Assembly (NCBI RefSeq): GCF_009931435.1
Contig: NZ_CP043414.1
Reading direction: 5' to 3' (one strand)
DNA length: 64,000 nt
Source: Escherichia coli
GTDB taxonomy: Bacteria > Pseudomonadota > Gammaproteobacteria > Enterobacterales > Enterobacteriaceae
Shown here piece by piece: positions 11,012-60,535 of the stretch. A program made the translations under genes and the position numbers. The notes under the pieces are model-generated. The model had not been told where the DNA came from and ran no database searches. It saw nothing but the letters and a program-made list of their open reading frames with translations. Positions within the stretch are counted from its first letter, which is position 1. Each line of letters starts with the position of its first letter.

Positions 11012-11168
11012 GGTTATCCTTAACAATGGGCACAGACATTGAAACGCGCGCTGGCGTTGGCCAAAGGAGTCTATTGCTCTTTGTCAGGAAAGATGTGGCG
11101 AAAAGTAGTGAATATATTCTGAAAAGTGGGGAAAAGAGACGCCTGGTGCAAAACACCAGGCGAAAGGA

Positions 11169-24921: not shown

Positions 24922-27810
24922 ATGCCCCGCAGCACCTGGTTCAAAGCATTATTGTTGTTTGTTGCCCTTTGGGCACCCTTAAGTCAGGCAGAAACGGGAT
25001 GGCAGCCGATTCAGGAAACCATCCGTAAAAGTGATAAAGATAACCGCCAGTATCAGGCTATACGTCTGGATAACGGTATGGTGGTTTTGCTGGTTTCTGA
25101 CCCGCAGGCGGTTAAATCGCTCTCGGCGCTGGTGGTGCCCGTTGGGTCGCTGGAAGATCCCGAGGCGTACCAGGGGCTGGCACATTACCTTGAACATATG
25201 AGTCTGATGGGTTCGAAAAAGTACCCGCAGGCTGACAGTCTGGCTGAATACCTCAAAATGCACGGCGGCAGCCACAATGCCAGCACGGCACCGTATCGCA
25301 CGGCTTTCTATCTGGAAGTTGAGAACGACGCCTTACCCGGTGCGGTAGACCGCCTGGCCGATGCTATTGCTGAACCCTTGCTCGACAAGAAATACGCCGA
25401 ACGTGAGCGTAATGCGGTGAACGCTGAATTAACCATGGCGCGTACGCGTGATGGGATGCGCATGGCACAGGTCAGCGCAGAAACCATTAACCCGGCACAC
25501 CCAGGTTCAAAGTTTTCTGGTGGTAACCTCGAAACTTTAAGCGATAAACCCGGCAATCCGGTACAGCAGGCGCTGAAAGATTTCCACGAGAAATATTACT
25601 CTGCCAATCTGATGAAGGCGGTTATATACAGCAATAAACCGTTGTCGGAGTTGGCAAAAATGGCGGCGGACACTTTTGGTCGCGTGCCGAACAAAGAGAG
25701 CAAAAAACCGGAAATCACCGTGCCGGTAGTCACCGACGCGCAAAAGGGCATTATCATTCATTACGTCCCGGCGCTGCCGCGTAAAGTTCTGCGCGTTGAG
25801 TTTCGCATCGATAACAATTCAGCGAAGTTCCGTAGTAAAACGGATGAATTGATTACCTATCTGATTGGTAATCGCAGCCCAGGTACACTTTCTGACTGGC
25901 TGCAAAAGCAGGGATTAGTTGAGGGCATTAGCGCCAATTCCGATCCTATCGTCAACGGCAACAGCGGCGTATTAGCGATCTCTGCGTCTTTAACCGATAA
26001 AGGTCTGGCGAATCGCGATCAGGTTGTGGCGGCCATTTTTAGCTACCTCAATCTGTTACGCGAAAAAGGGATTGATAAACAATACTTCGATGAACTGGCG
26101 AATGTGCTGGATATCGACTTTCGTTATCCGTCAATCACCCGTGATATGGATTACGTCGAATGGCTGGCAGATACCATGATTCGCGTTCCTGTTGAGCATA
26201 CGCTGGATGCAGTCAATATTGCCGATCGGTACGATGCTAAAGCAGTAAAAGAACGCCTGGCGATGATGACGCCGCAGAATGCGCGTATCTGGTATATCAG
26301 CCCGAAAGAGCCGCACAACAAAACGGCTTACTTTGTCGATGCGCCGTATCAGGTAGATAAAATCAGCCCACAAACTTTCGCTGACTGGCAGAAAAAAGCC
26401 GCCAATATTGCGCTCTCCTTACCGGAGCTTAACCCTTATATTCCTGACGATTTCTCGCTGATTAAGTCAGAGAAGAAATACGACCATCCAGAGTTGATTG
26501 TGGATGAGGCGAATCTGCGTGTGGTGTATGCGCCGAGCCGTTATTTTGCCAGCGAGCCTAAAGCCGATGTCAGCCTGATTTTGCGTAACCCGAAAGCCAT
26601 GGACAGCGCCCGCAATCAGGTGATGTTTGCGCTCAATGATTATCTTGCCGGACTGGCGCTTGATCAGTTAAGCAACCAGGCGTCGGTTGGTGGCATAAGT
26701 TTTTCCACCAATGCTAACAACGGCCTTATGGTTAATGCCAATGGTTACACCCAGCGCCTGCCGCAGCTGTTCCAGGCTCTGCTGGAGGGCTACTTTAGCT
26801 ATACCGCTACGGAAGATCAGCTTGAGCAGGCGAAGTCCTGGTATAACCAGATGATGGATTCCGCAGAAAAGGGCAAAGCGTTCGAGCAGGCGATTATGCC
26901 CGCGCAGATGCTCTCGCAAGTGCCGTACTTCTCGCGAGATGAACGGCGCAAAATTTTGCCTTCAATCACTTTGAAAGAGGTGCTGGCCTATCGCGACGCC
27001 TTAAAATCAGGGGCTCGACCAGAGTTTATGGTTATTGGCAACATGACCGAAGCCCAGGCAACAACGCTGGCACGCGATGTGCAAAAACAGTTGGGCGCTG
27101 ATGGTTCGGAGTGGTGTCGTAACAAAGATGTCGTGGTCGATAAAAAACAATCCGTCATCTTTGAAAAAGCCGGTAACAGCACCGACTCCGCACTGGCAGC
27201 GGTATTTGTACCGACTGGCTACGATGAATACACCAGCTCAGCCTATAGCTCTCTGCTGGGGCAGATCGTACAGCCGTGGTTCTACAATCAGTTGCGTACC
27301 GAAGAACAGTTGGGCTATGCCGTGTTTGCGTTTCCAATGAGCGTGGGACGTCAGTGGGGCATGGGCTTCCTGTTGCAAAGCAATGATAAACAGCCTTCAT
27401 TCTTGTGGGAGCGTTACAAGGCGTTTTTCCCAACCGCAGAGGCAAAATTGCGGACGATGAAGCCAGAAGAGTTTGCGCAAATCCAGCAGGCGGTAATAAC
27501 CCAGATGCTGCAGGCACCGCAAACGCTCGGCGAAGAAGCATCGAAGTTAAGTAAAGATTTCGATCGCGGCAATATGCGCTTCGATTCGCGTGATAAAATC
27601 GTGGCCCAGATAAAACTGCTGACGCCGCAAAAACTTGCTGATTTCTTCCATCAGGCGGTGGTCGAGCCGCAAGGCATGGCTATTCTGTCGCAGATTTCCG
27701 GCAGCCAGAACGGGAAAGCCGAATATGTGCATCCTGAAGGTTGGAAAGTGTGGGAGAACGTCAGCGCGTTGCAGCAAACAATGCCCCTGATGAGTGAAAA
27801 GAATGAGTGA
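24922..27810 (+). CDS. ptrA: Protease III (pitrilysin), periplasmic M16 zinc metalloprotease
   Basis: 962 aa, signal peptide, inverted zinc motif HYLEH. Confidence 0.95.
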   Translation: MPRSTWFKALLLFVALWAPLSQAETGWQPIQETIRKSDKDNRQYQAIRLDNGMVVLLVSDPQAVKSLSALVVPVGSLEDPEAYQGLAHYLEHMSLMGSKKYPQADSLAEYLKMHGGSHNASTAPYRTAFYLEVENDALPGAVDRLADAIAEPLLDKKYAERERNAVNAELTMARTRDGMRMAQVSAETINPAHPGSKFSGGNLETLSDKPGNPVQQALKDFHEKYYSANLMKAVIYSNKPLSELAKMAADTFGRVPNKESKKPEITVPVVTDAQKGIIIHYVPALPRKVLRVEFRIDNNSAKFRSKTDELITYLIGNRSPGTLSDWLQKQGLVEGISANSDPIVNGNSGVLAISASLTDKGLANRDQVVAAIFSYLNLLREKGIDKQYFDELANVLDIDFRYPSITRDMDYVEWLADTMIRVPVEHTLDAVNIADRYDAKAVKERLAMMTPQNARIWYISPKEPHNKTAYFVDAPYQVDKISPQTFADWQKKAANIALSLPELNPYIPDDFSLIKSEKKYDHPELIVDEANLRVVYAPSRYFASEPKADVSLILRNPKAMDSARNQVMFALNDYLAGLALDQLSNQASVGGISFSTNANNGLMVNANGYTQRLPQLFQALLEGYFSYTATEDQLEQAKSWYNQMMDSAEKGKAFEQAIMPAQMLSQVPYFSRDERRKILPSITLKEVLAYRDALKSGARPEFMVIGNMTEAQATTLARDVQKQLGADGSEWCRNKDVVVDKKQSVIFEKAGNSTDSALAAVFVPTGYDEYTSSAYSSLLGQIVQPWFYNQLRTEEQLGYAVFAFPMSVGRQWGMGFLLQSNDKQPSFLWERYKAFFPTAEAKLRTMKPEEFAQIQQAVITQMLQAPQTLGEEASKLSKDFDRGNMRFDSRDKIVAQIKLLTPQKLADFFHQAVVEPQGMAILSQISGSQNGKAEYVHPEGWKVWENVSALQQTMPLMSEKNE

Positions 27811-34970: not shown

Positions 34971-36224
34971 ATGTCGGGATCCAACACAGCAATCAGCCGT
35001 CGTCGTTTACTGCAAGGCGCGGGTGCCATGTGGCTATTGAGCGTAAGTCAGGTCAGTCTGGCTGCGGTCAGCCAGGTCGTGGCGGTGCGCGTCTGGCCTG
35101 CGTCCAGCTACACCCGTGTGACGGTAGAATCTAATCGTCAGCTGAAATATAAGCAGTTCGCGTTGAGTAACCCTGAACGCGTGGTGGTGGATATCGAAGA
35201 TGTAAACCTGAACTCAGTGCTCAAGGGGATGGCGGCACAAATTCGTGCTGATGACCCGTTCATCAAGTCGGCGCGCGTCGGGCAGTTTGACCCGCAAACC
35301 GTGCGGATGGTTTTTGAGTTAAAGCAAAACGTAAAACCGCAGCTGTTTGCCCTTGCTCCGGTCGCCGGGTTTAAAGAGCGTCTGGTGATGGATCTCTATC
35401 CTGCCAATGCTCAGGACATGCAGGACCCGCTGCTGGCGCTGCTGGAGGATTACAATAAAGGCGATCTCGAAAAGCAGGTGCCGCCTGCGCAGAGTGGCCC
35501 GCAGCCAGGCAAAGCAGGGCGCGATCGTCCGATTGTCATTATGCTTGACCCTGGCCATGGCGGCGAAGACTCCGGTGCGGTGGGGAAATACAAAACGCGT
35601 GAAAAAGACGTGGTATTGCAAATTGCCCGCCGTTTGCGCTCTCTGATTGAGAAAGAGGGCAATATGAAAGTTTACATGACCCGTAATGAAGACATCTTCA
35701 TTCCGTTGCAAGTGCGCGTAGCAAAAGCACAGAAACAGCGTGCTGACTTGTTTGTCTCTATTCATGCCGATGCCTTTACCAGTCGCCAGCCGAGCGGTTC
35801 ATCTGTGTTTGCGCTCTCTACCAAAGGTGCAACCAGTACCGCGGCAAAATATCTGGCGCAAACTCAGAACGCCTCGGACTTGATTGGTGGCGTGAGTAAG
35901 AGCGGCGACCGTTATGTCGACCATACTATGTTCGATATGGTGCAGTCGCTGACCATTGCCGACAGTCTGAAGTTTGGTAAAGCTGTGTTGAATAAGCTCG
36001 GTAAAATCAACAAGCTGCATAAAAATCAGGTTGAACAAGCCGGGTTTGCCGTGCTGAAAGCGCCTGATATACCCTCCATTTTGGTCGAAACGGCGTTTAT
36101 CAGTAACGTTGAGGAAGAACGTAAACTGAAAACGGCAACCTTCCAGCAGGAAGTTGCGGAATCAATCCTCGCAGGAATAAAAGCGTATTTTGCCGATGGG
36201 GCGACGCTGGCGAGAAGGGGATAA
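34971..36224 (+). CDS. amiC: N-acetylmuramoyl-L-alanine amidase AmiC
   Basis: 417 aa from the ATG at 34971 (RBS gggag); Tat signal [11 protein letters not shown]; amidase_3 domain. Confidence 0.9.
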
Positions 36225-36321
36225 TGTTTTTATTTATTCAATGAATTTATATTTCGTTGAATAGATAATATTTACCTGAATATTAGACGTTGGTTTTGTG
36301 ACTGATGTCGAATATTTGAAT

Positions 36322-36344
36322 GTCGGCTTGAAAAATAAGCCGAC
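36322..36344. other. Hairpin about 100 bp downstream of amiC
   Basis: Perfect 8-bp inverted repeat gtcggctt-gaaaaat-aagccgac; no U-tract. Confidence 0.3.
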
Positions 36345-36395
36345 CATCTCTTTAATTAAGCACAATTCCGTGTAATGTATATGCATTAGTTAATC

Positions 36396-36470
36396 ATCTT
36401 GTAACTGTTAAATCAGGCAAGGCAATGTTTGAAGTAATTATTACTTCTGACGTGCCTTGCCTTTTTTTTT
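36396..36470 (+). promoter_or_regulatory. RAT-like element overlapping a Rho-independent terminator (BglG/SacY-type antitermination leader)
   Basis: cttgtaactgttaaatcaggcaaggca resembles RAT sequences as I recall them; its 3' half forms the 5' arm of the hairpin caggcaaggca...tgccttgcc, followed by T9, just upstream of the antiterminator RBS. Confidence 0.55.
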
Positions 36471-36481
36471 GGAGCTATGGA

Positions 36482-37306
36482 ATGATCATCGAAAAAGTCA
36501 TGAACAATAATTGTGTACAGGCATCGATGAATGGACAGGAGGTTATCATTTCTGGGCCTGGCGTCGGTTACAACAAAAAATATGGAATGTCGGTCCCTGA
36601 GCATCCGGCTAACCGGATTTTTTATGTCAGAAATGAACAAAAAAATAAACTCTACAAATTGATTGAACATGTGGATATTGAGTATGTTTTTGTTGCCGAA
36701 AAAATAGTGCAATATGCAGAGAACAATCTCGAAAAAAATCTCAATCCATCGCTACTATTGATTCTTGCTGATCACATTTCGAATGCAATATCCCGAGTCG
36801 CTTCAGGCATACAAATTAATAATGTTTTCCTTGATGAAATCAAAGCGTTGTACAAAGCAGAGTATGCGATAAGTCGCGATGCATTAACTATCATTAATGA
36901 GCAATTTAGCGTTCAACTTCCTGATGATGAGATTGGTTTTATAGCATTGCATATTTTAAATAATTATGAAAATTCAGTTGATTATGAATCAGTACGGATT
37001 ATTGAGTTGTCGCAAATAATCACGGGGCTTATTGAAGTTGTTTATAACAGAAAGGTGGACAGAAGTTCATTTAATTATTCCAGGTTCATGATACACCTTA
37101 AATATTTTTCAAGTCGCGTATTATGCAATGAAAAAATAAAACAGAAAGATATTGGTGATCTCTATGAACAGTTTCTTGAGAAAGACATTCTGTTACAGCG
37201 CGCAATTCATGAAATTGAAAGGTATTTGTACGCCACTTTTAAATATGAATTGATTTTGGAAGAAAAACTATATCTCTCTATTCGCACCAAAGTATTAATG
37301 GACTAA
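36482..37306 (+). CDS. BglG/LicT-family transcription antiterminator (CAT RNA-binding domain + two PRDs)
   Basis: 274 aa from the ATG at 36482 (RBS ggag 8 nt upstream); N-terminal KVMNNNCV...GQEVIISGPGVGY matches the CAT domain; PRD-like histidine contexts; the ORF-track start at 36425 lies inside the terminator loop. Confidence 0.8.
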   Translation: MIIEKVMNNNCVQASMNGQEVIISGPGVGYNKKYGMSVPEHPANRIFYVRNEQKNKLYKLIEHVDIEYVFVAEKIVQYAENNLEKNLNPSLLLILADHISNAISRVASGIQINNVFLDEIKALYKAEYAISRDALTIINEQFSVQLPDDEIGFIALHILNNYENSVDYESVRIIELSQIITGLIEVVYNRKVDRSSFNYSRFMIHLKYFSSRVLCNEKIKQKDIGDLYEQFLEKDILLQRAIHEIERYLYATFKYELILEEKLYLSIRTKVLMD

Positions 37307-37337
37307 TTATATATAACATTTATATGAGATAACCCGC

Positions 37338-38918
37338 ATGAAACAAAAGAAAGCCTGGAGTTTTTTTCAGAGCCTGGGAAAGGCATTTATGTATCCCATC
37401 GCTCTGCTAAGTGTATGTGGCATGATGTTAGGGCTAGGAAGTGGTTTAGCCAGCGATGATATGGCAAAATTAATTCCACTACTGGCTATTCCCGTAATTA
37501 AAACCATTCTTGATTTTATTGTTAGCCTTGGTTTGTTTGCCTTTGTCAATTTACCTGTATTGTTTGCGATAGCTATACCTCTGGGGTTATTAAAAGAGAA
37601 AGAGGATAAAGCCTATGGCGCTTTTTCTGGCTTAATTGGTTTCATGGCGATGCATCTGGGAACGAACTTTTATCTTAAACAACATGACTTATTGGTCGCT
37701 GCTGATCAAATGTCGACACATGGGCAAACCATTATTCTGGGAATCCAGTCCTACAATACCAGTGTGTTGGGTGGGATTATAGCAGGATTATTAGTCGCCA
37801 GTATGTATAAAAAGATCGTTAACTTACGTATTCCTGAATCATTAGGATTTTATAGTGGCCCACGCCTGGTGCCTATTATTACACTGATTGTGATGAGTGG
37901 ATTTGGTCTGATCATCCCTTTTATCTGGCCGCCATTTTTCAATCTTTTCATGCTCATTGGCCACTGGATTTCAACTTCCGGTCCTGTTGGCTATTTTTTC
38001 TATGCAGTCGCCGAACGCGTGACGATACCTTTTGGTTTAAATCACCTGGTGACGTCAGTTTTCCGCTTTACCCCCATCGGCGGATCGGCAGTGATCGGCG
38101 GCGAAGAGTATTATGGCACCCTGAACATGTTTATGGCGTACGTCAAAGAGAATGCGGTCATTCCGCTGGATTTGGCGGGGAAAATGGAACAGGGCAAACT
38201 GATGATTCAGTATGGTCTGGCTGGTGCCGCGCTGGCGATGTATCGCACTGCTCATGCTCAAAACAGAAAAGCTATCAAAGCATTGCTTATTTCCGGGGTG
38301 CTTACAGTCATTATTGGCGGCGTCAGCGAACCGATTGAGTTTCTGTTCTTATTTGTCAGTCCACTGCTGTTTGTCTTCCATGCCTTTATGAATGGATTCG
38401 CCAACATGGTCTTGCCATATATGGGCGTGAAGATGGGATTTACTGGCGATCTGATTCAATTTATTAGCTTTGGCGTATTGCGTGGCACAAGAACAGGTTG
38501 GCCAATAGCGGTGTGTGTCGAAGTGGCCTATTTCTTTATTTATTACTTTGTGTTCCGTTGGACTATTCTCAAATTTAACCTGATGACGGTAGGCCGTGAA
38601 GAGTCCAGTCCTGTCACGCTGAACGCTCATGAGGATACGGCTATAGCGGATATCCCAACGCTTGATAAATCAGAGCTGCAAGCAGCGGAGCAGATGGTTA
38701 AGGCACTTGGTGGTAAAGAGAATATTAAATCCCTGGATAATTGCGTAACTCGTTTACGTTTAACAATCGCAGATATGGGATTGATTGACGAGGCAGCAAT
38801 AAAAAGAGCTGGCGGAATTGCGGTTGTTAAACTTGATCAAAATACCCTACAAGTCATTATCGGTACTAAAGTCATCGCCTTGCGTCGGGATATGGATAAC
38901 TACATGGGGATATGCTGA
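37338..38918 (+). CDS. PTS glucose-family EIICB component (no EIIA domain)
   Basis: 526 aa; multi-TM EIIC followed by C-terminal EIIB with cysteine motif LDNCVTRLRL. Confidence 0.85.
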   Translation: MKQKKAWSFFQSLGKAFMYPIALLSVCGMMLGLGSGLASDDMAKLIPLLAIPVIKTILDFIVSLGLFAFVNLPVLFAIAIPLGLLKEKEDKAYGAFSGLIGFMAMHLGTNFYLKQHDLLVAADQMSTHGQTIILGIQSYNTSVLGGIIAGLLVASMYKKIVNLRIPESLGFYSGPRLVPIITLIVMSGFGLIIPFIWPPFFNLFMLIGHWISTSGPVGYFFYAVAERVTIPFGLNHLVTSVFRFTPIGGSAVIGGEEYYGTLNMFMAYVKENAVIPLDLAGKMEQGKLMIQYGLAGAALAMYRTAHAQNRKAIKALLISGVLTVIIGGVSEPIEFLFLFVSPLLFVFHAFMNGFANMVLPYMGVKMGFTGDLIQFISFGVLRGTRTGWPIAVCVEVAYFFIYYFVFRWTILKFNLMTVGREESSPVTLNAHEDTAIADIPTLDKSELQAAEQMVKALGGKENIKSLDNCVTRLRLTIADMGLIDEAAIKRAGGIAVVKLDQNTLQVIIGTKVIALRRDMDNYMGIC

Positions 38919-40093
38919 TGGATGTTTTTAATACTCCTATTTCCCGCAAAGGAACATATTGTACCCAATGGGACTTTTGCGAGGACAGATTTGGTGTAAA
39001 AGATGTATTACCATTCTCTATTTCAGATATGGATCTTCCGATACCGGAAGCTATCATCAGGGCATTAAAAAAACGTCTGGAACACCCGATTTTAGGGTAC
39101 AGCCGTTGGCAGCATGATGACTATCTGAATGCGATAGTCAATTGGTATCATCAACAATATAAAACTGAAATCAAACCAGAATGGATCACCTATAGCCCAA
39201 GCGTGATGTACTCCATTGCTAAAGCAATAGAGTTATTGACATCGCATGGTGATAATATTCTCGTTTTTACACCTGTCTATAATGCATTTTTTGATATAAT
39301 TAAACATAGCGAGAGAAATATTCTGACAGCCTCTTTGATTATAAAAAATGAGGGGGGCTACGCTATCAATTGGCAAGATTTTGATCTTAAGATTCAAAGC
39401 GCAAAGATGGTGTTATTATGTAATCCTCATAACCCGACAGGAACCGTCTGGTCGGAAGAAGATCTGCATAAAATCGCTGCAAGCTGTGCAAGACATAATG
39501 TCTGGTTATGTTCAGATGAAATTCACAGTGATTTTGTTTTTAATCGTAGCTTTACATCTGCGCTTAAAATAAAAAAAGAAAAAGTAGTGGTGTTTAATTC
39601 GATATCGAAGACATTTAATGTTCCTGCGCTAACAGGATCGTATATGATTTCAACTGACGATAATTTTAATCATGAGTTCAGAACGATATCAAGATATCGC
39701 GATTTTGTAAACTCCCCATCCGTACTGAATATAATTGCAACTATTATTGCCTATAACGAATGTGAGGGATGGTTAACGTCATTAAAGGCACATATTGCCT
39801 CTAACATTCAATTCACCCAGCAGTATCTGAACGAAAATACTCCAGAATTGATCGTAAGGCCTGCTGATGGTTGCTATTTTTCGTGGATAGATTGCTCTGC
39901 TATTGGTTATCCCTTTGATGAATTCTACAGTCGATTAATTCATGAAGGCAAAGTGGGCATTATGGCGGGGAATGTCTATGGAACGGAGGGGGAGGGCTAC
40001 CTTCGTCTGAACCTGGCCTGCGGTCGAGAAAAATTATATATGGGGCTTACGCGTCTTGCGAGTGTAATTAAAAATATTAATCAAGGAAAATAA
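38912..40093 (+). CDS. MalY/PatB-family PLP-dependent C-S beta-lyase (class I/II aminotransferase fold)
   Basis: 393 aa; TYCTQWDF...DRFG N-terminal motif and PLP lysine context SISKTFNVPALTG; 7-bp overlap with the PTS gene. Confidence 0.85.
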   Translation: MLMDVFNTPISRKGTYCTQWDFCEDRFGVKDVLPFSISDMDLPIPEAIIRALKKRLEHPILGYSRWQHDDYLNAIVNWYHQQYKTEIKPEWITYSPSVMYSIAKAIELLTSHGDNILVFTPVYNAFFDIIKHSERNILTASLIIKNEGGYAINWQDFDLKIQSAKMVLLCNPHNPTGTVWSEEDLHKIAASCARHNVWLCSDEIHSDFVFNRSFTSALKIKKEKVVVFNSISKTFNVPALTGSYMISTDDNFNHEFRTISRYRDFVNSPSVLNIIATIIAYNECEGWLTSLKAHIASNIQFTQQYLNENTPELIVRPADGCYFSWIDCSAIGYPFDEFYSRLIHEGKVGIMAGNVYGTEGEGYLRLNLACGREKLYMGLTRLASVIKNINQGK

Positions 40094-40095
40094 AA

Positions 40096-40692
40096 ATGAA
40101 CAGCACGGATCTTATCCATCTCATTAAACATTTTATGCGTAACGAACATAAAGCAGTTGAAGAAGTTATTGATTCCCCCCTTTCGGAGGTCGCAAATTTA
40201 ATTAAAGTATTACAGTCTTGTCAGGGGAAAGTTGTTTTTATTGGTGTCGGTAAGTCCGGTATTATTGCCCGAAAACTCGCCGCAACATTTGCCAGCACTG
40301 GAACTCCCTCGTTTTTTGTTCACGGTACTGAAGCCGTACACGGCGATCTTGGGATGGTGGCGAAAGATGATGTTGTTATTCTTATTTCAAACAGTGGTGA
40401 GACGACAGAAATCCTGGCAACACTACCTAGTCTGAAAAAAATGGGTAATTATTTGATCTCCTTTACCCGCAGTCATCGCTCATCGCTTGCGATAAGTTGT
40501 GATTTATCCGTTGAAATTCCCGTAAAAAGTGAGGCGGATAATTTAGGTTTAGCGCCGTCATGCTCATCAACAGTCGTTCTGGTTGTTGGTGATGCGGTGG
40601 CGCTTGCGCTCTCCGAATTGAAAAAGTTTACTCGTGCTGATTTCGGCTTATATCATCCAGGAGGTGCGCTCGGTATTAAAGCAAACTCATAA
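40096..40692 (+). CDS. Single SIS-domain phosphosugar isomerase, arabinose-5-phosphate isomerase-like, lacking CBS domains
   Basis: 198 aa; GVGKSGIIARKLAATFASTGTPSFFVH and SNSGET motifs resemble the KpsF/GutQ SIS domain; no CBS pair. Confidence 0.8.
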   Translation: MNSTDLIHLIKHFMRNEHKAVEEVIDSPLSEVANLIKVLQSCQGKVVFIGVGKSGIIARKLAATFASTGTPSFFVHGTEAVHGDLGMVAKDDVVILISNSGETTEILATLPSLKKMGNYLISFTRSHRSSLAISCDLSVEIPVKSEADNLGLAPSCSSTVVLVVGDAVALALSELKKFTRADFGLYHPGGALGIKANS

Positions 40693-40762
40693 TTTTAGAA
40701 TATAAAACAGTAACCGGTCACGCCATCTTTTGGGGTGGCGTTCATTGATGTGAGTGTCAGCT

Positions 40763-41710
40763 ATGAAAAACGTTCTGGTCACCGTTCCCAGCTTTTCAGC
40801 GCGTTGTGTTTCTGCCAGCAAGCTGCTAAGAGAAAATCATTTTAACCTTATTATCAAGAATAATGTGGAGCATCTGGTTAAATCAGAATCCACAGTATTA
40901 CGAGAATCTATTTGCGCAGTCATTGCCGGAAAAGATTGTTATCAAGCGGATACGTTATCGCGACTACCAGGAGTGAAAATAATATCGAGATTCGGGACAG
41001 GGATTGATAATATTGATCTTCATACGGCTCGACAATCAGGTATTGTGGTCAATAATGCTGTTGGGATTAATTCAAATGCAGTCGCGGAATTTATCATTGG
41101 TCTTATTTTTGCGAGCATGAGAAATATCCCCGGTAGCTATCATGCGATGCAAAATGGTTATTGGGGCGAGTCGCATGGCTGCGAGTTACAAGGTAAACGT
41201 ATTGGCCTGCTTGGCTACGGCAATATTGGCAAAACACTGGCGAAAAGGTTATCTGGTTTTGATGTTGAGCTTTTAGCTTTTGACAAACAACCCGATTTCC
41301 AGGCCGCAGGCAAAGATGGAGTTCAGTTCGTATCAATTGAAGATATCTTTATGCAGTCTCATGTCATCATCGTTCTTTTGCCATTTTCTCCGGAGCTGGA
41401 GAACTTCATTAGTCATAAATATTTGTCGATGATGCGCAATGGTGCTCTTATCATCAACGCCGCAAGGGGAAAGTTGCTGGATGAGGGTGCTTTACTTCAG
41501 GTAATTGAAGAACGAAATGTTTTTGCAGCGCTGGATGTGTTTAGCTCTGAACCGCTAGCGCAATTTAGCCCATTGCTACATGCCAGGAATATCATTACAA
41601 CGCCGCATATTGCGGCCGCCACCGTTGAGTCATACCAGCAAACCGGGATATACGTTGCCAGGTCGATAATAGATTTCTTTGCAGGAAGGGAGATAAAAAA
41701 CGTGCTGTGA
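40763..41710 (+). CDS. D-isomer-specific 2-hydroxyacid dehydrogenase family protein (NAD-binding)
   Basis: About 315 aa from the ATG at 40763 (a GTG at 40754 is possible); GxGxxG motif GLLGYGNIGKTLAKRL; C-terminal catalytic His region TPHIAAAT. Confidence 0.8.
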   Translation: MKNVLVTVPSFSARCVSASKLLRENHFNLIIKNNVEHLVKSESTVLRESICAVIAGKDCYQADTLSRLPGVKIISRFGTGIDNIDLHTARQSGIVVNNAVGINSNAVAEFIIGLIFASMRNIPGSYHAMQNGYWGESHGCELQGKRIGLLGYGNIGKTLAKRLSGFDVELLAFDKQPDFQAAGKDGVQFVSIEDIFMQSHVIIVLLPFSPELENFISHKYLSMMRNGALIINAARGKLLDEGALLQVIEERNVFAALDVFSSEPLAQFSPLLHARNIITTPHIAAATVESYQQTGIYVARSIIDFFAGREIKNVL

Positions 41711-41736
41711 GTTCAGCTAAGGAAGATTTCAGGTAC

Positions 41737-41770
41737 AAAAAAACCGCAATTTGTGAAACACATTGCGGTT
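41737..41770 (-). terminator. Rho-independent terminator of the tRNA-fMet operon (minus strand)
   Basis: On the minus strand, hairpin aaaccgcaatgtgtttcacaaattgcggttt followed by T7. Confidence 0.6.
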
Positions 41771-41788
41771 TATCAGCATCATAAGTGT

Positions 41789-41865
<77 letters not shown>

Positions 41866-41898
41866 TCACCGTACTGCTTTACTTCATCAAATTTTGAT

Positions 41899-41975
<77 letters not shown>

Positions 41976-42008
41976 TCACCGTACTGCTTTACTTCATCAA
42001 ATTTTAAT

Positions 42009-42085
<77 letters not shown>

Positions 42086-42293
42086 TCCGTGGATGCGCAC
42101 TATACTCCGCTCGCGTTTTCATGCAACCTTTTTTTTACCCAGATCACGGATTTGGTATGATTTTGAGCAAAAACAAATCACTAAAGCCTGTTTTTTGTGC
42201 AAAATTTGCGTCAGGGAGAGGCTGCTCATTTCATTAAACGCAGCGGTTTGTTATCTTCATTGCGCCTTATTTTTTAAACTGAAGAAGAGAACA

Positions 42294-53726: not shown

Positions 53727-53808
53727 CAGGATTCCTCATCTCGCTTTATTGGCGCTCTGCTAAGGCGGAGAAAGGAAACCACCGAAGCAGTAGTATTGGT
53801 CATTATTT

Positions 53809-53824
53809 GCTAACTCGAGTTAGC
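53809..53824. promoter_or_regulatory. 16-bp perfect palindrome GCTAACTCGAGTTAGC, putative operator (copy 1, 83 bp upstream of fucI)
   Basis: Exact self-complementary 16-mer; an identical copy lies 239 bp away. Confidence 0.45.
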
Positions 53825-54047
53825 TTAGGTTTGTAGGCTTTTTATGCACAACTTTTTTGTTGTTGAAATGTGAGGGGCTTCACGAGAAGTGGTTAAAATA
53901 CGATCTCTGTCAAATTATTATTTAGCGGGATAAAAATAAATTTTACGTATAATCAAATGGTTATTAGATTTTAATGGTTATGCATCACAGTTTTAACTCA
54001 AATGATTTGGCTAATTTGTATACCTAAAATAGCTTTAAAAGGCGATC

Positions 54048-54063
54048 GCTAACTCGAGTTAGC
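54048..54063. promoter_or_regulatory. 16-bp perfect palindrome GCTAACTCGAGTTAGC, putative operator (copy 2, 133 bp upstream of the ABC ATPase gene)
   Basis: Identical to copy 1; immediately preceded by the palindrome gcgatcgc. Confidence 0.45.
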
Positions 54064-54195
54064 AAAATGCGAAGAATAGATTGATACGATGAATATTTAT
54101 TCAAAGGTTATTCGTATCACAGTGGAGATGGCTTTAGTAGCGACGTTTATGCCGTACTTCACATTTTCAGTTTCTGATTATTGAGGAAAGCTGCA

Positions 54196-55695
54196 ATGTC
54201 CGAAACATTTTTGCAAATGAAGCATATCACCAAACGCTTTCCTGGAGTGTTGGCGCTTAATGACGTGCAATTTACCCTACGCCGGGGCGAGGTTCATGCA
54301 TTATTAGGTGAAAATGGTGCAGGAAAATCTACATTAATGAAAATTTTGTCGGGGGTTTATCAACCTGATGAAGGCGAAATAATTTTTGAAGATAAATTAG
54401 TCTCATTTTCTGATCCGTTAAGTGCGCAAAACGTAGGTATTACTATTATTCACCAGGAATTTAATTTATTTCCCGAGCTTACAGTAGAAGAAAATATTTT
54501 TATCGGCAGGGAGTTTTGTAAAAAAAATCGCTGGCGTCTGGATGAGAAACAGCAACGCAAGGCGACGATTGAAATTTTGCAAAAATTAAATTTGGCGATC
54601 AAACCAGATACTCTGGTTGCCGACCTTACGGTAGCTCAACAACAGATGGTAGAAATTGCCAAGGCCATTTCGGTTAACGCCAGGATTCTCATTATGGATG
54701 AACCTACTGCGGCGTTAACAGAAACTGAAATTGAAAGCTTATTTCGCGTCACCCGGTTATTGAAAGAACAGGGGACCGGCATTGTGTATATATCCCACCG
54801 TCTGGAAGAGTTGGCGCTAATTGCCGACCGCGCGACTGTAATGCGTGATGGTCAGTACATCAGCACAGTAGATTATGAGTGCGTAAAAATCAGCGATCTG
54901 ATTGCCATGATGGTTGGTCGCGATTTAGGGAATATCTATCCCCGCCGCGAGGCCATACAGCAGCGGATGCCGGTTCTGGAGGTCAACGGACTGACGCGCA
55001 AAGGCGTACTGAACGATATTAATTTTACGCTTTATCGTGGCGAGATCCTCGGCTTTGCCGGACTGATGGGGGCAGGTCGTACTGAACTTGCGCGTGCGAT
55101 TTTTGGTGCGGACTCCATTGACAGCGGAACGCTAAAGTTAAATGGTAAGGAAACCGTTATTAAAGATATTTCGGATGCTATTCAGCAGGGAATTAGTTAC
55201 CTGACGGAAGACCGAAAAAAAGAAGGGTTGGCACTGAATTTATCTGTTGAACGAAATATTATGTTAGGAAATTACCCTGAGTATTCCGATCGTTTTGGGA
55301 ATGTCGATTCGCGTCGTTGCCAACAAACCAGTGAGGAACAGGTAAAAGCGTTAAGGATTAAAACGCCAAATCTTGAACAGGCTGCATTAAATCTAAGTGG
55401 AGGAAATCAGCAGAAAATTATAATTGCACGTTGGGTGTGTAAAGATACTGATATTTTAATCTTCGATGAACCCACTCGCGGCATTGATGTTGGCGCCAAA
55501 CTGGAAATCTATGAGTTAATGAATCGCCTGGTGGCAAAAGGGAAATCAATCATCATGATCTCCTCTGAATTGCCGGAGGTGTTAGGAATGTGCGACCGTA
55601 TTTTAGTGATGCGCAGTGGTCGAATTACTGGCGAACTTAGCGCAAATGAAGCGACACAAGAAAAAATCATGCAATACGCGACGTTAGAGGATTAA
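54196..55695 (+). CDS. Sugar ABC transporter ATP-binding protein with two NBDs (RbsA/MglA/XylG-like)
   Basis: 499 aa from the ATG at 54196 (RBS gaggaaag); Walker A GENGAGKST and a second NBD. Confidence 0.85.
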   Translation: MSETFLQMKHITKRFPGVLALNDVQFTLRRGEVHALLGENGAGKSTLMKILSGVYQPDEGEIIFEDKLVSFSDPLSAQNVGITIIHQEFNLFPELTVEENIFIGREFCKKNRWRLDEKQQRKATIEILQKLNLAIKPDTLVADLTVAQQQMVEIAKAISVNARILIMDEPTAALTETEIESLFRVTRLLKEQGTGIVYISHRLEELALIADRATVMRDGQYISTVDYECVKISDLIAMMVGRDLGNIYPRREAIQQRMPVLEVNGLTRKGVLNDINFTLYRGEILGFAGLMGAGRTELARAIFGADSIDSGTLKLNGKETVIKDISDAIQQGISYLTEDRKKEGLALNLSVERNIMLGNYPEYSDRFGNVDSRRCQQTSEEQVKALRIKTPNLEQAALNLSGGNQQKIIIARWVCKDTDILIFDEPTRGIDVGAKLEIYELMNRLVAKGKSIIMISSELPEVLGMCDRILVMRSGRITGELSANEATQEKIMQYATLED

Positions 55696-55698
55696 ATT

Positions 55699-56682
55699 AT
55701 GACTATCTCTGTAACCTCTCCAGACAGCAATAATAAGAAAATAAAGATAAATAAAGAACTTTTGATGCGCCTTGCGCCTCTTTTTAGCTTAATTATATTA
55801 GTGCTGTTTTTTAGTTTCAGCTCTCCCTTTTTCTTTAATACCGAAAATATCATGACGATTGCTCTGCAAACGTCGGTTATCGGCATTATGGCCATTGGGG
55901 TAACTTTCGTCATTATTACCGCGGGCATCGATCTTTCATTGGGTTCCGTGGTGGCTTTTTCTGGTGTCGCCGTGGGGATTTGCGCCACACTGGGCCTGCC
56001 GCTGCCAGTGTGTATTATTGCCGGTGTTTTAGCCGGTGGAATGTGCGGCTATGTGAATGGTTTGTTGGTCACTAAAATGACTATTCCACCGTTTATCGCT
56101 ACCTTGGGCCTGATGATGTCCGTCAGAGGTATCAATATGGTGATGACCGACGGGCGCGCCATCTATTTTGCCGATTACCCGATGTTCAAAACGCTCGCTC
56201 AGGGACGCTTGTTTGATGTGCTGCCTTATCCTGTTTTCTACCTGGTCATTGTGGCGCTTGTCGGCGCTTACATCCTGAAGAAAACGGTTATTGGTCGCTA
56301 TGTCTATGCCGTAGGCAGTAATGAAGTTGCTGCTCATCTTTCTGGTATTAAAGTTCAGCGCGTGAAAATTTTCGTCTATGCCTTCTGTGGTTTATTAACC
56401 GGGATTGCGGGTGTCATTCTCGCTTCTCGTCTCAACTCCGGACAACCGACGGTGGGTGTGGGTTATGAGCTGGAAGCTATTGCTGCGGTAGTGATCGGCG
56501 GAACCAGCTTAATGGGCGGTATTGGCACTATTGGCGGCACAATCATTGGCGCTTTCATTATGAGTGTACTGAAAAATGGCCTCAATTTAATGGGGGTCTC
56601 TCAGTTCTGGCAAATGGTCGCGATGGGCGTAGTTGTGGTCGCTGCCGTTTACCTCGATACATTACGCAAAAAGATTCGTTGA
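55699..56682 (+). CDS. Sugar ABC transporter permease (RbsC-like)
   Basis: 327 aa, multi-TM; starts 3 bp after the ATPase stop. Confidence 0.85.
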   Translation: MTISVTSPDSNNKKIKINKELLMRLAPLFSLIILVLFFSFSSPFFFNTENIMTIALQTSVIGIMAIGVTFVIITAGIDLSLGSVVAFSGVAVGICATLGLPLPVCIIAGVLAGGMCGYVNGLLVTKMTIPPFIATLGLMMSVRGINMVMTDGRAIYFADYPMFKTLAQGRLFDVLPYPVFYLVIVALVGAYILKKTVIGRYVYAVGSNEVAAHLSGIKVQRVKIFVYAFCGLLTGIAGVILASRLNSGQPTVGVGYELEAIAAVVIGGTSLMGGIGTIGGTIIGAFIMSVLKNGLNLMGVSQFWQMVAMGVVVVAAVYLDTLRKKIR

Positions 56683-56755
56683 CTTAGGCTCCCTGTTTTA
56701 TCGGGAAACAACTGCCCTGACGTTAAGGGTGATTCACTCAGAACGGAGTACAACA

Positions 56756-57706
56756 ATGAAAACCAGGCATTTTATCTATGCGTTATCTCTGCTGGCTTGC
56801 GTAAGTTCCAGCGCACTGGCGAAGGATTTAAATCTTCCGGTTGTTAGTAAAGGTTTCCAACATGAATTCTGGCAAACCGTAAAAATGGGGACTGAAGCTG
56901 CGGCTAAAGAGTTGGGGGATAAAACCAGCTATGTTGGCCCGGCTGATGAAACGCAAATAGCCGAGCAAATTCAGTTAGTCGAAAATGCGATGGCGCAGAA
57001 ACCGAATGGCTTGCTTCTGGCAGCCCTCGACGCGAATGCGCTCGCCCCACTGGTAGAAACGGCAAATTCACGCGGTATCAAAGTGGTGACCTTTGATTCA
57101 GGCATCAATTCAGACATTCCGGTGAGTTTTGTCGCCACCAATAACCGTAAAGCAGGTGCTCAGGCAGCTGATGCCTTAGCTGCGCAGGTAAATAATAAAG
57201 GGAAAGTTGGGATTATCGCGCACGTTGCAGGAACATCTTCCGCTATTGAACGCTCGGAAGGCTTCATGGAGCGTATGAAAGAAAAATATCCTGACATTAA
57301 AGTCTTACCCGTTCAGTACAGCGATGGTGACCCGCAAAAAGCGATGGATAAAACTATCGATATGATTCAGGCCAATCCCGATCTTGCTGGGATCTATGGC
57401 ACCAATGAAGGTTCAACGCTCGGGGTGGCGAATGCCATTGATAGCCAGAATCTGAAAGGTAAGGTGAAGGTCATTGGTTTTGATAGTACGGAAGCGATTA
57501 TTAACTTCCTGAAGAACGGGGTCATTCAGGGCTTTGTTGTTCAGGATGCATACCAGATTGGCTATCAAGGGATCAAAACGTTGAACGCGGCCCTTTCGGG
57601 GCAAGCCGTTGAAAAAGAGATCGATATTCCCGTGAAATTTGTTAATGCCGAGAATATTAACACGCCAGAAATCGACAAACTCCTGCACCCATTCGGTAAG
57701 AAATAA
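56756..57706 (+). CDS. Periplasmic sugar-binding protein (RbsB-like)
   Basis: 316 aa from the ATG at 56756; signal peptide MKTRHFIYALSLLACVSSSALA; type-I periplasmic binding fold. Confidence 0.85.
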   Translation: MKTRHFIYALSLLACVSSSALAKDLNLPVVSKGFQHEFWQTVKMGTEAAAKELGDKTSYVGPADETQIAEQIQLVENAMAQKPNGLLLAALDANALAPLVETANSRGIKVVTFDSGINSDIPVSFVATNNRKAGAQAADALAAQVNNKGKVGIIAHVAGTSSAIERSEGFMERMKEKYPDIKVLPVQYSDGDPQKAMDKTIDMIQANPDLAGIYGTNEGSTLGVANAIDSQNLKGKVKVIGFDSTEAIINFLKNGVIQGFVVQDAYQIGYQGIKTLNAALSGQAVEKEIDIPVKFVNAENINTPEIDKLLHPFGKK

Positions 57707-57759
57707 AAAAATTGGGGATGAATTCTCATCCCCGTTATCTCCAGCGTCAGGGAGGCTTT

Positions 57760-59340: not shown

Positions 59341-59404
59341 GACAAAAGTTGAAAATACTTTTATGATTGTGATTTGACGTCTGGATGTTAACTGGGAAAT
59401 ACCT

Positions 59405-60403: not shown

Positions 60404-60535
60404 TAATCGCCAAAAGATATCAGGCTACTGAACAATGATATTCAGTGGCCTCCCCTTACTAAAAATAACCCCGTCTTCATTTGCGGTGCTGTTTTACGCA
60501 ACAAGGCGAGCTGAAACTGTATCTGGAGAATAGAA

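Follow-up and report, generated by a model that had tools for sequence, protein, structure and literature searches.

An AT-rich PTS islet between amiC and the tRNA-fMet genes of Escherichia coli corresponds to the paf operon of uropathogenic strain CFT073

Identity and Distribution of the Islet

In the window, i.e., the 64,000-nucleotide stretch of Escherichia coli contig NZ_CP043414.1 analysed here, five genes separate amiC from the tRNA-fMet genes. Judged by its sequence, this islet is the known c3405-c3409 operon (pafR-pafP-c3407-c3406-c3405) of uropathogenic E. coli CFT073, the amiC-proximal arm of 'PAI-metV'. The explanation that we consider the best, with a probability of roughly 0.8, joins this identity with two further proposals: the operon would encode a PTS sugar pathway controlled by PafR and a RAT, and it would represent an old, recombining haplotype.

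The gap is filled by five intact co-directional ORFs on the + strand. Its left border is the core gene amiC (34971–36224, + strand; NCBIfam AmiC, 800 bits), as annotated by RefSeq in strain R32_14_1F, which is 99.8% identical to the window. At the right border lie three core tRNA-fMet (CAT) genes, metV/W/Z (41789–42085, − strand; ARAGORN; Rfam tRNA, 61 bits each), 99.3% identical to those of K-12. The islet is missing from K-12, just as the initial annotation had stated: the spacer there measures 73 bp and showed no shared sequence when compared with both islet ends, while the amiC stop codon is TGA instead of the TAA of the window. The AT-richness that had been pointed out is also real, since GC content is 33–45% across 36.0–41.7 kb versus 52–57% in the flanks, and 34–44% in the islet genes versus about 53% (0.525–0.53) in argA, amiC and mltA. 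The right end of the islet, previously set at 41736, had to be moved to the tRNA 3' end (41788), because the spacer 41711–41788 belongs to the islet haplotype: it is kept in all islet-bearing Escherichia and is unrelated to the K-12 spacer. An inverted repeat within it (41741–41771), followed by T7 on the − strand, is likely the terminator of the tRNA operon and would act as a weak terminator for the islet.

The homologous cluster suspected in CFT073 shares all five genes, their order and their amiC-proximal position, with 94.1% DNA identity over 5,550 nt and 93–99% identical proteins. Unlike in CFT073, the islet of the window directly abuts the tRNA: the T6SS module (with ISEc12 in some strains), which accounts for the remainder of the 32-kb PAI-metV, is missing here. 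Genes c3405-c3410 have been placed in PAI-CFT073-metV (PMC2831201), and pafR and pafP were described as metV-island genes required in mouse UTI (Baum 2014, via secondary reports). The element is, then, already described, and its first two genes are already named and have mouse-UTI phenotypes. As late as February 2026, a genome paper listed the block as uncharacterised, and we found no published substrate or whole-operon pathway in the literature, which agrees with the earlier view that both are unexplained. The islet was found in 1,688 of 5,426 complete E. coli genomes (about a third); the allele of the window (at least 99% identity) occurs in just 94 of them, mostly animal isolates among those listed.

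Leader and Antiterminator

The operon opens with an AT-rich leader (36225–36481, + strand), which shares 97.7% identity with the B2 allele and, over its 3' part, 77–88% with the leaders of strain E69, E. whittamii, Citrobacter and Atlantibacter. A RAT-like element, CUUGUAACUGUUAAAUCAGGCAAG (36398–36421, + strand), is the proposed antiterminator binding site and overlaps the 5' arm of an intrinsic terminator (36415–36470, + strand), the latter consisting of a 21-bp interrupted hairpin (36415–36462) and a 9-T run (36462–36470), whose first T forms the final pair of the hairpin. The RAT-like element folds as stem, internal loop and stem, and its UUGUAACUG...CAGGCAA core recurs in the four canonical RATs of a C. 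difficile operon (see below). All seven of its proposed pairs are maintained in seven orthologues, where a compensatory change turns G-C into A-U in one case. The leader has a minimum free energy of −32.4 kcal/mol (z = −5.2), and none of 200 shuffles folded equally well. As for the terminator stem, 90% of cells were paired across seven orthologues versus 35–54% with the partner slid, and three pairs had changes on both sides; the CFT073/B2 allele differs from the window by one stem pair (G-U instead of G-C). By these comparisons, the predicted RAT and terminator are conserved both in sequence and in structure. A consensus scan of the leader detected no sigma-70-like promoter. The activity of the paf promoter has reportedly gone undetected in every in-vitro condition screened, and the RNA targets of PafR are said not to have been identified.

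The first gene encodes a PafR-type PRD antiterminator of the BglG/LicT family (36482–37306, + strand; 274 aa), an orthologue of c3409 (98% amino acid identity). The ORF had been opened at 36425, a start that we rejected as over-extended, that stretch being the leader terminator hairpin; the true start is ATG 36482, in agreement with the RefSeq annotation of the nearest strain. The protein matched NCBIfam LicT over positions 1–269 of 273 (E 2e-67), as well as the PDB structures of LicT PRDs and CAT-PRD1, and its dN/dS is about 0.06. With its CAT + PRD1 + PRD2 architecture, an adjoining gene for the cognate EII and an intrinsic terminator that overlaps the RAT, the system resembles those of BglG, SacY, LicT and GlcT (E. 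coli bglGFB, B. subtilis glcT-ptsG), and the terminator precedes the antiterminator gene itself, as in bglGFB. Three of the four phosphorylatable histidines of LicT are conserved; at the position of the fourth, i.e., the second of PRD2 (LicT H269), the proteins of Escherichia, Atlantibacter and Citrobacter have Arg. The islet departs from BglG/LicT systems also in its cargo, which is not a known beta-glucoside or glucose, and in its downstream genes, which encode a PLP enzyme and an isomerase rather than a phospho-glycosidase.

Transporter, Enzymes and Related Systems

Profile matches upheld all five gene families that had been assigned (LicT/BglG, MalX-like EIICB, PatB/MalY, SIS only, 2-hydroxyacid dehydrogenase), and dN/dS is 0.02–0.14 over the five genes. 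The second gene (37338–38918, + strand; 526 aa) encodes a PafP-type PTS EIICB of the glucose/maltose family, orthologous to c3408 (99%), with the EIIB motif LDNCVTRLRL and a dN/dS of 0.02; no EIIA gene was found in the islet. Its stop codon overlaps (TGATG) the start of the third gene (38918–40093, + strand, listed as an ORF from 38912/38918; 391 aa), an orthologue of c3407 (95%), which encodes a MalY/PatB-family PLP enzyme scoring 366 bits against TIGR04350 (PatB/MalY C-S lyase; cut-off 340). Aligned with MalY 1D2F, this enzyme has the SKTFN PLP-Lys motif, SDEIH, NPHNPTG and the carboxylate-binding Arg of RLN; its dN/dS is 0.12.

The fourth gene (40096–40692, + strand; 198 aa) encodes a single-SIS arabinose-5-phosphate isomerase, a KpsF/GutQ-type SIS domain without the CBS pair, carrying the GKSG, HGDLG, SNSGET and HPGG motifs and having a dN/dS of 0.04. 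All 198 residues aligned with PDB 5UQI/5VHU (E 8.8e-121), a chain that we take to be c3406, its deposited name being just 'phosphosugar isomerase'. The link to the characterised isomerase of the metV island, suggested in the initial annotation, holds: the protein is 97% identical to CFT073 c3406, whose arabinose-5-phosphate isomerase activity was demonstrated (Mosberg 2011). It covers KdsD positions 36–201 of 328 with catalytic motifs conserved, its orthologue in BEN2908 being 52% identical to the SIS domain of KdsD, and it resides in a PTS operon, like gutQ. In contrast to KdsD, GutQ and KpsF (about 320 aa), the protein lacks the C-terminal CBS pair, and its context is catabolic and accessory instead of LPS or capsule biosynthesis. 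Elsewhere, single-SIS homologues occur in catabolic clusters, either with a PfkB kinase and an MFS gene or with a PTS and two aldolases, which fits a funnelling of arabinose-5-phosphate to ribulose-5-phosphate.

The fifth gene (40763–41710, + strand, listed as an ORF from 40754/40763; 315 aa) encodes a D-isomer 2-hydroxyacid (phosphoglycerate-type) dehydrogenase, orthologous to c3405 (93%). It matched NCBIfam PGDH (E 6e-62), far under the equivalog cut-off, as well as PDB structures of PGDH and glyoxylate reductases. The gene is intact in the window, carries a frameshift in the nearest strain and is broken into fragments in A. hermannii, and it is missing from the Enterobacter-like and clostridial versions of the operon among the contexts examined.

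The remaining four genes form a core also present in Citrobacter, Enterobacter and clostridia. All 8 gene neighbourhoods around EIICB orthologues of at least 61% identity keep the antiterminator first, followed by EIICB, the MalY-like enzyme and the single SIS, and none adds a further enzyme. In C. difficile, CD3027–CD3031 (antiterminator, EIICB, MalY, SIS, EIIA) is co-linear with the islet over this core (EIICB, CD3030, 68% identity; SIS 52%; MalY-like 48%; antiterminator 36%), shares the RAT core and is likewise an accessory, variable-region locus. It differs in having its own EIIA-Glc gene, no dehydrogenase and an antiterminator that keeps the fourth PRD histidine; moreover, its antiterminator and EIICB genes are separated by four RAT-terminator units repeated in tandem with a 104-nt period, whereas the islet has a single unit upstream of the antiterminator gene.

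K-12 malI-malX-malY shows a comparable arrangement, in which a glucose/maltose-family EIICB gene is directly followed by a MalY/PatB-type PLP enzyme gene, and there, too, the physiological substrate is unknown. MalX (42%) and MalY (36%) are, in fact, the best characterised relatives of the islet proteins. One might hence regard the islet as a second malX-malY system, in which a glucose/maltose PTS and a MalY-type protein serve regulation (as MalY does on MalT) or sulfur amino-acid metabolism (cystathionase/cysteine desulfhydrase), with no novel substrate. Annotation labels the C. difficile operon a putative glucose-maltose PTS, and its MalY acts as a cysteine desulfhydrase in vitro. We nevertheless find this quite unlikely: the islet EIICB belongs to a separate orthologous group (61–99% identity inside, at most 47% to generic MalX-type proteins) and scores 537 bits against TIGR02004 (malX-type), under the cut-off of 632. 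Furthermore, malXY is controlled by the LacI-type repressor MalI rather than by a PRD antiterminator and RAT, and it has neither a dehydrogenase nor a counterpart of the obligatory single-SIS isomerase.

Another reading treats the islet mainly as a Bgl-like sensory and regulatory device, in which PafP senses a host signal, PafR antiterminates virulence, biofilm or capsule genes elsewhere, and the three enzymes are incidental. According to secondary accounts of Baum 2014, mutation of pafR or pafP causes attenuation in mouse UTI, PafR is expressed apparently in vivo only and not during growth in urine, and ectopic PafR inhibits motility and alters how genes for virulence, biofilm and capsule are expressed. 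However, an over-expressed RNA-binding protein may act indirectly, and the sole RAT-plus-terminator identified is in the operon's own leader. Purifying selection acts on the three enzyme genes (dN/dS 0.04–0.12) as strongly as on the regulator, and they are always co-linear with it across two phyla, including in non-pathogens and in the goat and chicken E. coli that are among the islet carriers. We therefore consider this reading unlikely and favour a PafR/RAT-controlled sugar pathway.

Proposed Mechanism

In such a pathway, transcription from a probably silenced promoter in the AT-rich leader would halt at the strong terminator (36415–36470), and read-through would occur only upon binding of PafR to the overlapping RAT; antitermination by PafR has been reported in the literature. 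By analogy with BglG/LicT, idle PafP would phosphorylate and inactivate PafR, which would be freed while PafP transports its sugar. PafP may import and phosphorylate a glucose/maltose-family sugar via the housekeeping EIIA-Glc (Crr), since the islet has no EIIA gene of its own and an EIIA-Glc gene is found in or next to the clostridial operons. The phosphorylated cargo might be handled by the MalY-type enzyme, which retains the residues binding a free alpha-amino acid; our best guess is that the cargo is a sugar with an amino-acid moiety. The single-SIS isomerase would feed the pentose phosphate pathway by turning arabinose-5-phosphate into ribulose-5-phosphate, while the dehydrogenase looks like an enterobacterial add-on, probably for a 2-oxo or 2-hydroxy acid by-product. 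The steps of PTS uptake, of the MalY-type enzyme and isomerase, and of the dehydrogenase are read from homology and gene order.

Several observations count against this mechanism. The chemistry by which a glucose-family PTS product and a MalY-type enzyme would yield arabinose-5-phosphate is unexplained. To this are added the decay of the dehydrogenase in some lineages, the reported in-vivo-only expression of PafR and the empty promoter scan. MalY-family enzymes are also promiscuous (cysteine desulfhydrase in C. difficile, racemase in L. sakei), so the true role of the MalY-like enzyme may lie off the PTS cargo.

Origin and Mobility of the Islet

The initial annotation regarded the block as inserted next to a tRNA gene. 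It is indeed present in the gap, adjoining the tRNA 3' side with neither integrase nor direct repeat, as had been stated, but the implied recent insertion is probably wrong. For B2, E. whittamii and A. hermannii, the DNA identity of the islet follows that of its flanks, and dS versus CFT073 is 0.15–0.43 in the islet and 0.235 in argA. E. whittamii, strain E69 and A. hermannii also carry the islet at the amiC–tRNA site, while Citrobacter uses a different one. Moreover, the islet lies inside a block of ~13 kb (32.5–46 kb) that is 4–6% diverged from both K-12 and CFT073, next to DNA 98–99% identical to K-12.

A classical genomic island targeted to the metV 3' end, with a site-specific recombinase since lost, would account for the abutting tRNA and the strongly deviating GC content; metV is listed in the literature as an integration hotspot, and in B2 strains a T6SS module truly integrated there, leaving a 14-nt partial tRNA repeat, TGGTTGCGGGGGCC. 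That repeat, however, is located at the side of the islet facing the T6SS: the module that it marks is the later insertion, and the islet was already present when the true tRNA-site event happened. The islet has no integrase ORF, and next to amiC no repeat of the tRNA 3' end was found, even with up to 3 mismatches allowed. The 73 bp that form the spacer in K-12 were replaced as a whole, along with the amiC stop codon, rather than split. Together with flank-like divergence and a site shared with another genus, this makes a tRNA-targeted island highly improbable.

The data are compatible both with ancient residence and repeated loss and with repeated transfer together with the flanks. Flank-like divergence and dS, along with the presence of the islet at this site in E. 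whittamii and A. hermannii, point to homologous recombination within the adjacent core genes, rather than an integrase, as the means of its movement. Overall, we regard the block as a haplotype of the amiC-metV intergenic site that is old and was foreign at first (Firmicutes-like). Lineages would acquire and lose it as an allele, and it looks like an old variant absent from many of them rather than a recent island.

Identity and Extent of the Islet

Five intact open reading frames, all on the plus strand, are enclosed by amiC, with its stop at 36224, and by three minus-strand tRNA-Met(CAT) genes (41789–42085). According to NCBIfam, they encode a LicT/BglG-type antiterminator (pafR, 36482–37306), a MalX-like EIICB (pafP, 37338–38918), a C-S lyase of the PatB/MalY type (38918–40093; TIGR04350, 366.2 bits against a cut-off of 340), a KpsF/GutQ-type SIS-domain protein without the CBS pair (40096–40692) and a phosphoglycerate-type D-2-hydroxyacid dehydrogenase (40763–41710). 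These are the families named in the initial annotation, and the low GC content reported there was also borne out, being 33–45% over 36.0–41.7 kb versus 52–57% on either side; gene by gene, the islet ranges over 0.34–0.44, against 0.525–0.53 for argA, amiC and mltA. K-12 indeed lacks the block: a 73-bp spacer unrelated to both islet ends is all that separates amiC from the first tRNA gene there, and the amiC stop codon differs too. The islet had been placed at 36225–41736. Its right border has to be moved, since the haplotype extends to 41788, the 3' end of a tRNA gene that is reached 78 nt past the dehydrogenase gene; the islet thus abuts the 3' side of that gene, as had been stated. All five genes show dN/dS values of 0.02–0.14, which means strong purifying selection.

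The islet is an already published element and not a new discovery; the initial annotation recognized something real and interpreted it rightly, including the homologous cluster in the metV island of CFT073. The CFT073 copy (NC_004431, 3249521–3255071) lies directly 3' of amiC, with the five genes co-linear, 94.1% identity and 100% coverage. The islet genes are c3405–c3409/c3410 of the original CFT073 annotation, and c3405–c3410 have been assigned to PAI-CFT073-metV (PMC2831201). As related in papers citing Baum et al. 2014, that study named the first two genes pafR and pafP; their loss in CFT073 impairs mouse urinary-tract infection, PafR is apparently expressed in vivo only, and ectopic PafR shifts the expression of virulence, biofilm and capsule genes. 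In the genome paper of strain BEN2908 (February 2026), the same five ORFs appear as region GR19 and still count as uncharacterised. Our literature search found no published substrate or pathway for the operon, in agreement with what had been presumed.

Among 5,426 complete E. coli genomes, the islet was present in 1,688, at an identity of at least 99% in 94 genomes, 95–99% in 51 and 90–95% in 1,543.

Origin of the Islet and of PAI-metV

Given the adjacent tRNA gene, integrase-mediated insertion had to be weighed, and we reject it. No integrase ORF occurs within 36225–41788 or in the flanks, no repeats were found at the islet borders, and a search for copies of the tRNA 3' end (25 nt, at most 3 mismatches) matched the three tRNA genes only, with nothing at the amiC border. 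The absence of an integrase and of direct repeats had been noticed from the outset. A real tRNA repeat marks the T6SS module instead. In CFT073 and the B2 strain TUM11356, the first 14 nt of the tRNA-fMet 3' end (TGGTTGCGGGGGCC; approximately 25562–25575 in the CFT073 locus L024 and 25792–25805 in the TUM11356 locus L003) stand after the islet spacer and ahead of T6SS DNA. Because the repeat sits between the islet spacer and the T6SS DNA, the T6SS module is thus a genuine, separate tRNA-site insertion, later than the paf operon in the same chromosome. TUM11356 carries ISEc12 besides this module. The complete 32-kb PAI-metV has a T6SS cluster between the operon and metV, and CFT073 and TUM11356 carry tss genes there, whereas the window has no such cluster. 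We therefore favour the view that PAI-metV is a composite.

Compared with TUM11356, the islet genes are 90–97% identical at the DNA level, and recD, argA and amiC 94–96%; for E. whittamii, the values are 90–95% for the islet and 92–93% for the flanking genes, and for Atlantibacter hermannii, 68–77% and 76–81%, respectively. Against CFT073, dS is 0.15–0.43 in the islet and 0.235 in argA. In each comparison, islet and flanks have thus diverged to a matching degree. The existence of 91, 92, 94 and 99.7% alleles might be taken for several independent recent acquisitions, but the flanking core genes are equally diverged, and we reject this scenario. Moreover, the arrangement of argA-amiC, islet and tRNA-fMet-mltA recurs in E. 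whittamii, strain E69 and A. hermannii; Citrobacter freundii carries the five genes at a different locus.

The islet is held within a block of approximately 13 kb (32.5–46 kb) that has diverged by 4–6% from both K-12 and CFT073, whereas the DNA outside it (46–52 kb) is 98–99% identical to K-12. The region is a mosaic, since its left flank (recD-argA-amiC) is matched at 99% or better by only 7 genomes and the islet by 94. The nearest strain, R32_14_1F, is itself mosaic, with 96.6% identity in recD and 99.8% in argA and amiC. Overall, we favour a haplotype that is old, of foreign and Firmicutes-like origin, and subject to exchange or loss through homologous recombination in the core genes on either side. 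The islet data fit both an ancient presence followed by losses and repeated transfer mediated by the flanks, and do not separate the two.

Two other segments of the window deserve mention. A 6.8-kb cluster between fucI and fucA (53727–60535), at the position of K-12 fucP, codes for ABC transporter proteins resembling RbsA/C/B, a pentulose kinase of the FGGY family and a regulator of the LacI type, and occurs in 383 of the 5,426 complete E. coli genomes, E. coli B included. It may be the fuc-linked D-arabinose (D-ribulokinase) cluster of E. coli B. A gene of the MuiA family ('mucoidy inhibitor A'; 9356–11026, minus strand, 556 aa) lies in a segment without a K-12 match.

PafR and Its Predicted Leader Target

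PafR has an N-terminal CAT RNA-binding domain and, after it, PRD1 and PRD2 (positions 1–269 of 273 in the LicT model). Its PDB matches are 6TWR (CAT-PRD1) and 1TLV/1H99 (PRDs), and its orthologues carry Pfam CAT_RBD and PRD domains. Baum and colleagues reportedly found in 2014 that PafR is able to act as a transcriptional antiterminator. Of the phosphorylatable histidines of LicT (H100, H159, H207 and H269), PafR has three (DHI, ALHI, HLK). The fourth, the second of PRD2, is replaced by arginine (LSIR; PafR residues 268–270, window 37285–37293) in Escherichia, Atlantibacter and Citrobacter and retained in the Enterobacter-like and C. difficile orthologues.

The leader upstream of pafR is 257 nt long and ends in a 21-bp interrupted hairpin (36415–36462), whose final pair coincides with the first T of a nine-T run (36462–36470); a Shine-Dalgarno sequence and the pafR start follow. 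The leader folds at −32.4 kcal/mol and is far more stable than shuffled sequence (z = −5.2). We place the start of pafR at the ATG at 36482, as does the RefSeq annotation of the nearest strain. A longer, 293-aa antiterminator ORF opening at 36425 was ruled out, its first 19 codons (57 nt upstream) being the leader terminator.

Fold and conservation together predict an intrinsic terminator at 36415–36470 on the plus strand, and a predicted RAT (CUUGUAACUGUUAAAUCAGGCAAG; 36398–36421, plus strand) overlaps the 5' arm of its hairpin. In BglG, SacY and LicT systems, too, the RAT overlaps an intrinsic terminator that precedes the regulated genes. Since Rfam offers no RAT family (in E-value mode, it returned only the three tRNAs over 36000–42200), the site was compared with the RATs of C. 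difficile: the leader core UUGUAACUG...CAGGCAA is the exact motif that is repeated four times in the homologous C. difficile operon. In an alignment of seven enterobacterial leaders (those of the window, the B2 strain, E69, E. whittamii, A. hermannii, C. freundii and an Enterobacter-like contig), each of the seven pairs proposed for the RAT is preserved, with one compensatory change. Pairing in the terminator reaches 90% in the same set, versus 35–54% after sliding the partner strand, and both sides have changed in three pairs. Coming from seven related sequences, these patterns are supportive and not proof. A simple terminator scan misses the interrupted hairpin.

In C. difficile (locus L017, 5974–6392), four tandem 104-nt units lie between the antiterminator and EIICB genes, each with a canonical RAT (GGAUUGUAACUG..GCAGGCAAAACCUAA) and its own terminator, forming an unusual four-fold serial attenuator. 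In biofilm, this operon (CD3027–CD3031) is reportedly induced 17–20-fold.

The simplest reading is an autoregulated operon of the bglG kind, in which the leader would terminate transcription unless PafR binds the RAT, and PafR would be freed from inhibition while PafP is busy transporting. A consensus scan gave no sigma-70-like promoter in the leader, which agrees with the absence of expression reported outside the host; we suspect silencing of the AT-rich leader DNA.

A Four-Gene Core Shared by Two Phyla

The orthologous group of the EIICB is sharply bounded: identities run from 99% down to 61% and then fall to 47% or less for ordinary MalX-type proteins. The window protein retains the EIIB cysteine motif and is 68% identical to C. 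difficile CD3030, against 42% to K-12 MalX. Eight EIICB contexts were compared: E. coli, A. hermannii, C. freundii, the Enterobacter-like contig, C. difficile, Clostridium sp. KNHs214 and two further contigs, of which one, from a JGI sample, has DnaB/DnaI/NrdR genes of the Firmicutes type as neighbours and the other is a metagenome scaffold. The order antiterminator, EIICB, MalY-like, single-SIS is found in all eight, with no extra enzyme in the core. This four-gene core is common to Escherichia, Citrobacter, Enterobacter and several clostridia and bacilli.

Within the eight contexts, only Escherichia, Atlantibacter and Citrobacter have the dehydrogenase gene, which carries a frameshift in the strain nearest to the window (locus L001, 10764–11710) and is fragmented in A. 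hermannii (locus L005, 8673–9620). An EIIA-Glc gene accompanies the clostridial versions only, which suggests that the enterobacterial PafP may use the housekeeping Crr. The unit to be explained is thus the four-gene core conserved in two phyla, and any proposed substrate must therefore suit both E. coli and C. difficile.

In the window, the MalY-like and SIS genes lie 2 nt apart. A few E. coli and Shigella records (P0002–P0005, P0009 and P0010) contain MalY-like/SIS fusion proteins of 550–592 aa.

A Tentative Pathway

KdsD, GutQ and KpsF combine the SIS domain with tandem CBS domains, whereas the 198-aa window protein has the SIS domain only (aligning to KdsD 36–201 of 328). Its TIGR00393 score of 191.8 is below the cut-off of 203.7, and it belongs to the CBS-less c3406 subgroup. 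The reference to a characterised single-SIS isomerase in CFT073 proved apt, the window protein being 97% identical to c3406, with a full-length match to PDB 5UQI/5VHU (E 8.8e-121). That 198-residue chain, deposited as 'phosphosugar isomerase', we take to be c3406. Mosberg and colleagues reportedly showed arabinose-5-phosphate isomerase activity for c3406 in 2011 (J Bacteriol 193:2981).

Searching genome contigs with the SIS protein gave, apart from close relatives in Escherichia and Atlantibacter, full-length CBS-containing KpsF proteins (e.g., one of 322 aa from Pseudobutyrivibrio), which are uninformative on the operon. CBS-less homologues with 52–60% identity lie in other clusters. In Mammaliicoccus (locus L026, 5354–9854), the neighbours are a LacI regulator, a PfkB kinase and an MFS transporter; in lactobacilli (loci L025 and L027, 3070–7609), they are a galactitol-type PTS, DHDPS-type and KDPG-type aldolases and a PRD regulator. 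It is possible that these clusters represent routes ending in arabinose-5-phosphate, for example from a 3-deoxy-octulosonate-like acid or D-arabinose. Such surroundings are clearly catabolic and fit a role in channelling arabinose-5-phosphate into the pentose phosphate pathway.

Enzymes of the MalY family are promiscuous. In the MalY-like protein of the window, the PLP-binding lysine of the SKTFN motif and the α-carboxylate-binding arginine of the RLN motif align with those of MalY (1D2F), and because both are kept, the enzyme would be expected to act on a free α-amino acid. Equally close MalY-like genes (43–48%) share operons with PTS of other families and with peptidases (M20, M24 or M42), as in Granulicatella (locus L020, 3138–9277) and Clostridium intestinale (locus L021, 910–8179). 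This company prompts our guess that a sugar with an attached amino-acid group is the cargo. Operons of this composition recall the PTS-plus-peptidase operons of E. coli.

Keeping these features in mind, it is tempting to suppose that the four-gene core constitutes a complete, undescribed two-enzyme pathway for a sugar with a free α-amino-acid group, although we give this idea only about one chance in five. The PLP enzyme would cleave the phosphorylated cargo, freeing arabinose-5-phosphate, which the isomerase would hand to the pentose phosphate pathway; candidate cargoes would be a glyco-amino acid or a 2-amino-2-deoxy-aldonic acid. The chemistries that we considered are β-elimination of O- or S-glycosyl-Ser/Cys, retro-aldol or decarboxylative cleavage of a 2-amino-2-deoxy-aldonate phosphate, and a deglycase-type reaction on ribulosamine phosphate. 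We cannot yet write a convincing reaction leading from the product of a glucose-family PTS to arabinose-5-phosphate.

Implications

The operon is tied to the urinary-tract fitness of uropathogenic E. coli, and its isomerase has been purified and crystallised. Our contribution to the subject lies in the leader RAT and terminator as a concrete target for PafR, in a core of four genes that spans two phyla, in the composite nature that we favour for PAI-metV and in the arguments against insertion by an integrase. The block is not confined to UPEC: as an old Escherichia haplotype, it is found in approximately 31% of complete genomes, farm-animal isolates included, so that phylogroup may account for its link to virulence as much as function does. 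The leader, as the predicted PafR target, is usable as a reporter in inducer screens. If true, the two-enzyme pathway would solve two long-standing puzzles, namely the proximity of MalY-type enzymes to PTS genes from several families (malXY among them) and the occurrence of arabinose-5-phosphate isomerases in Gram-positive bacteria.
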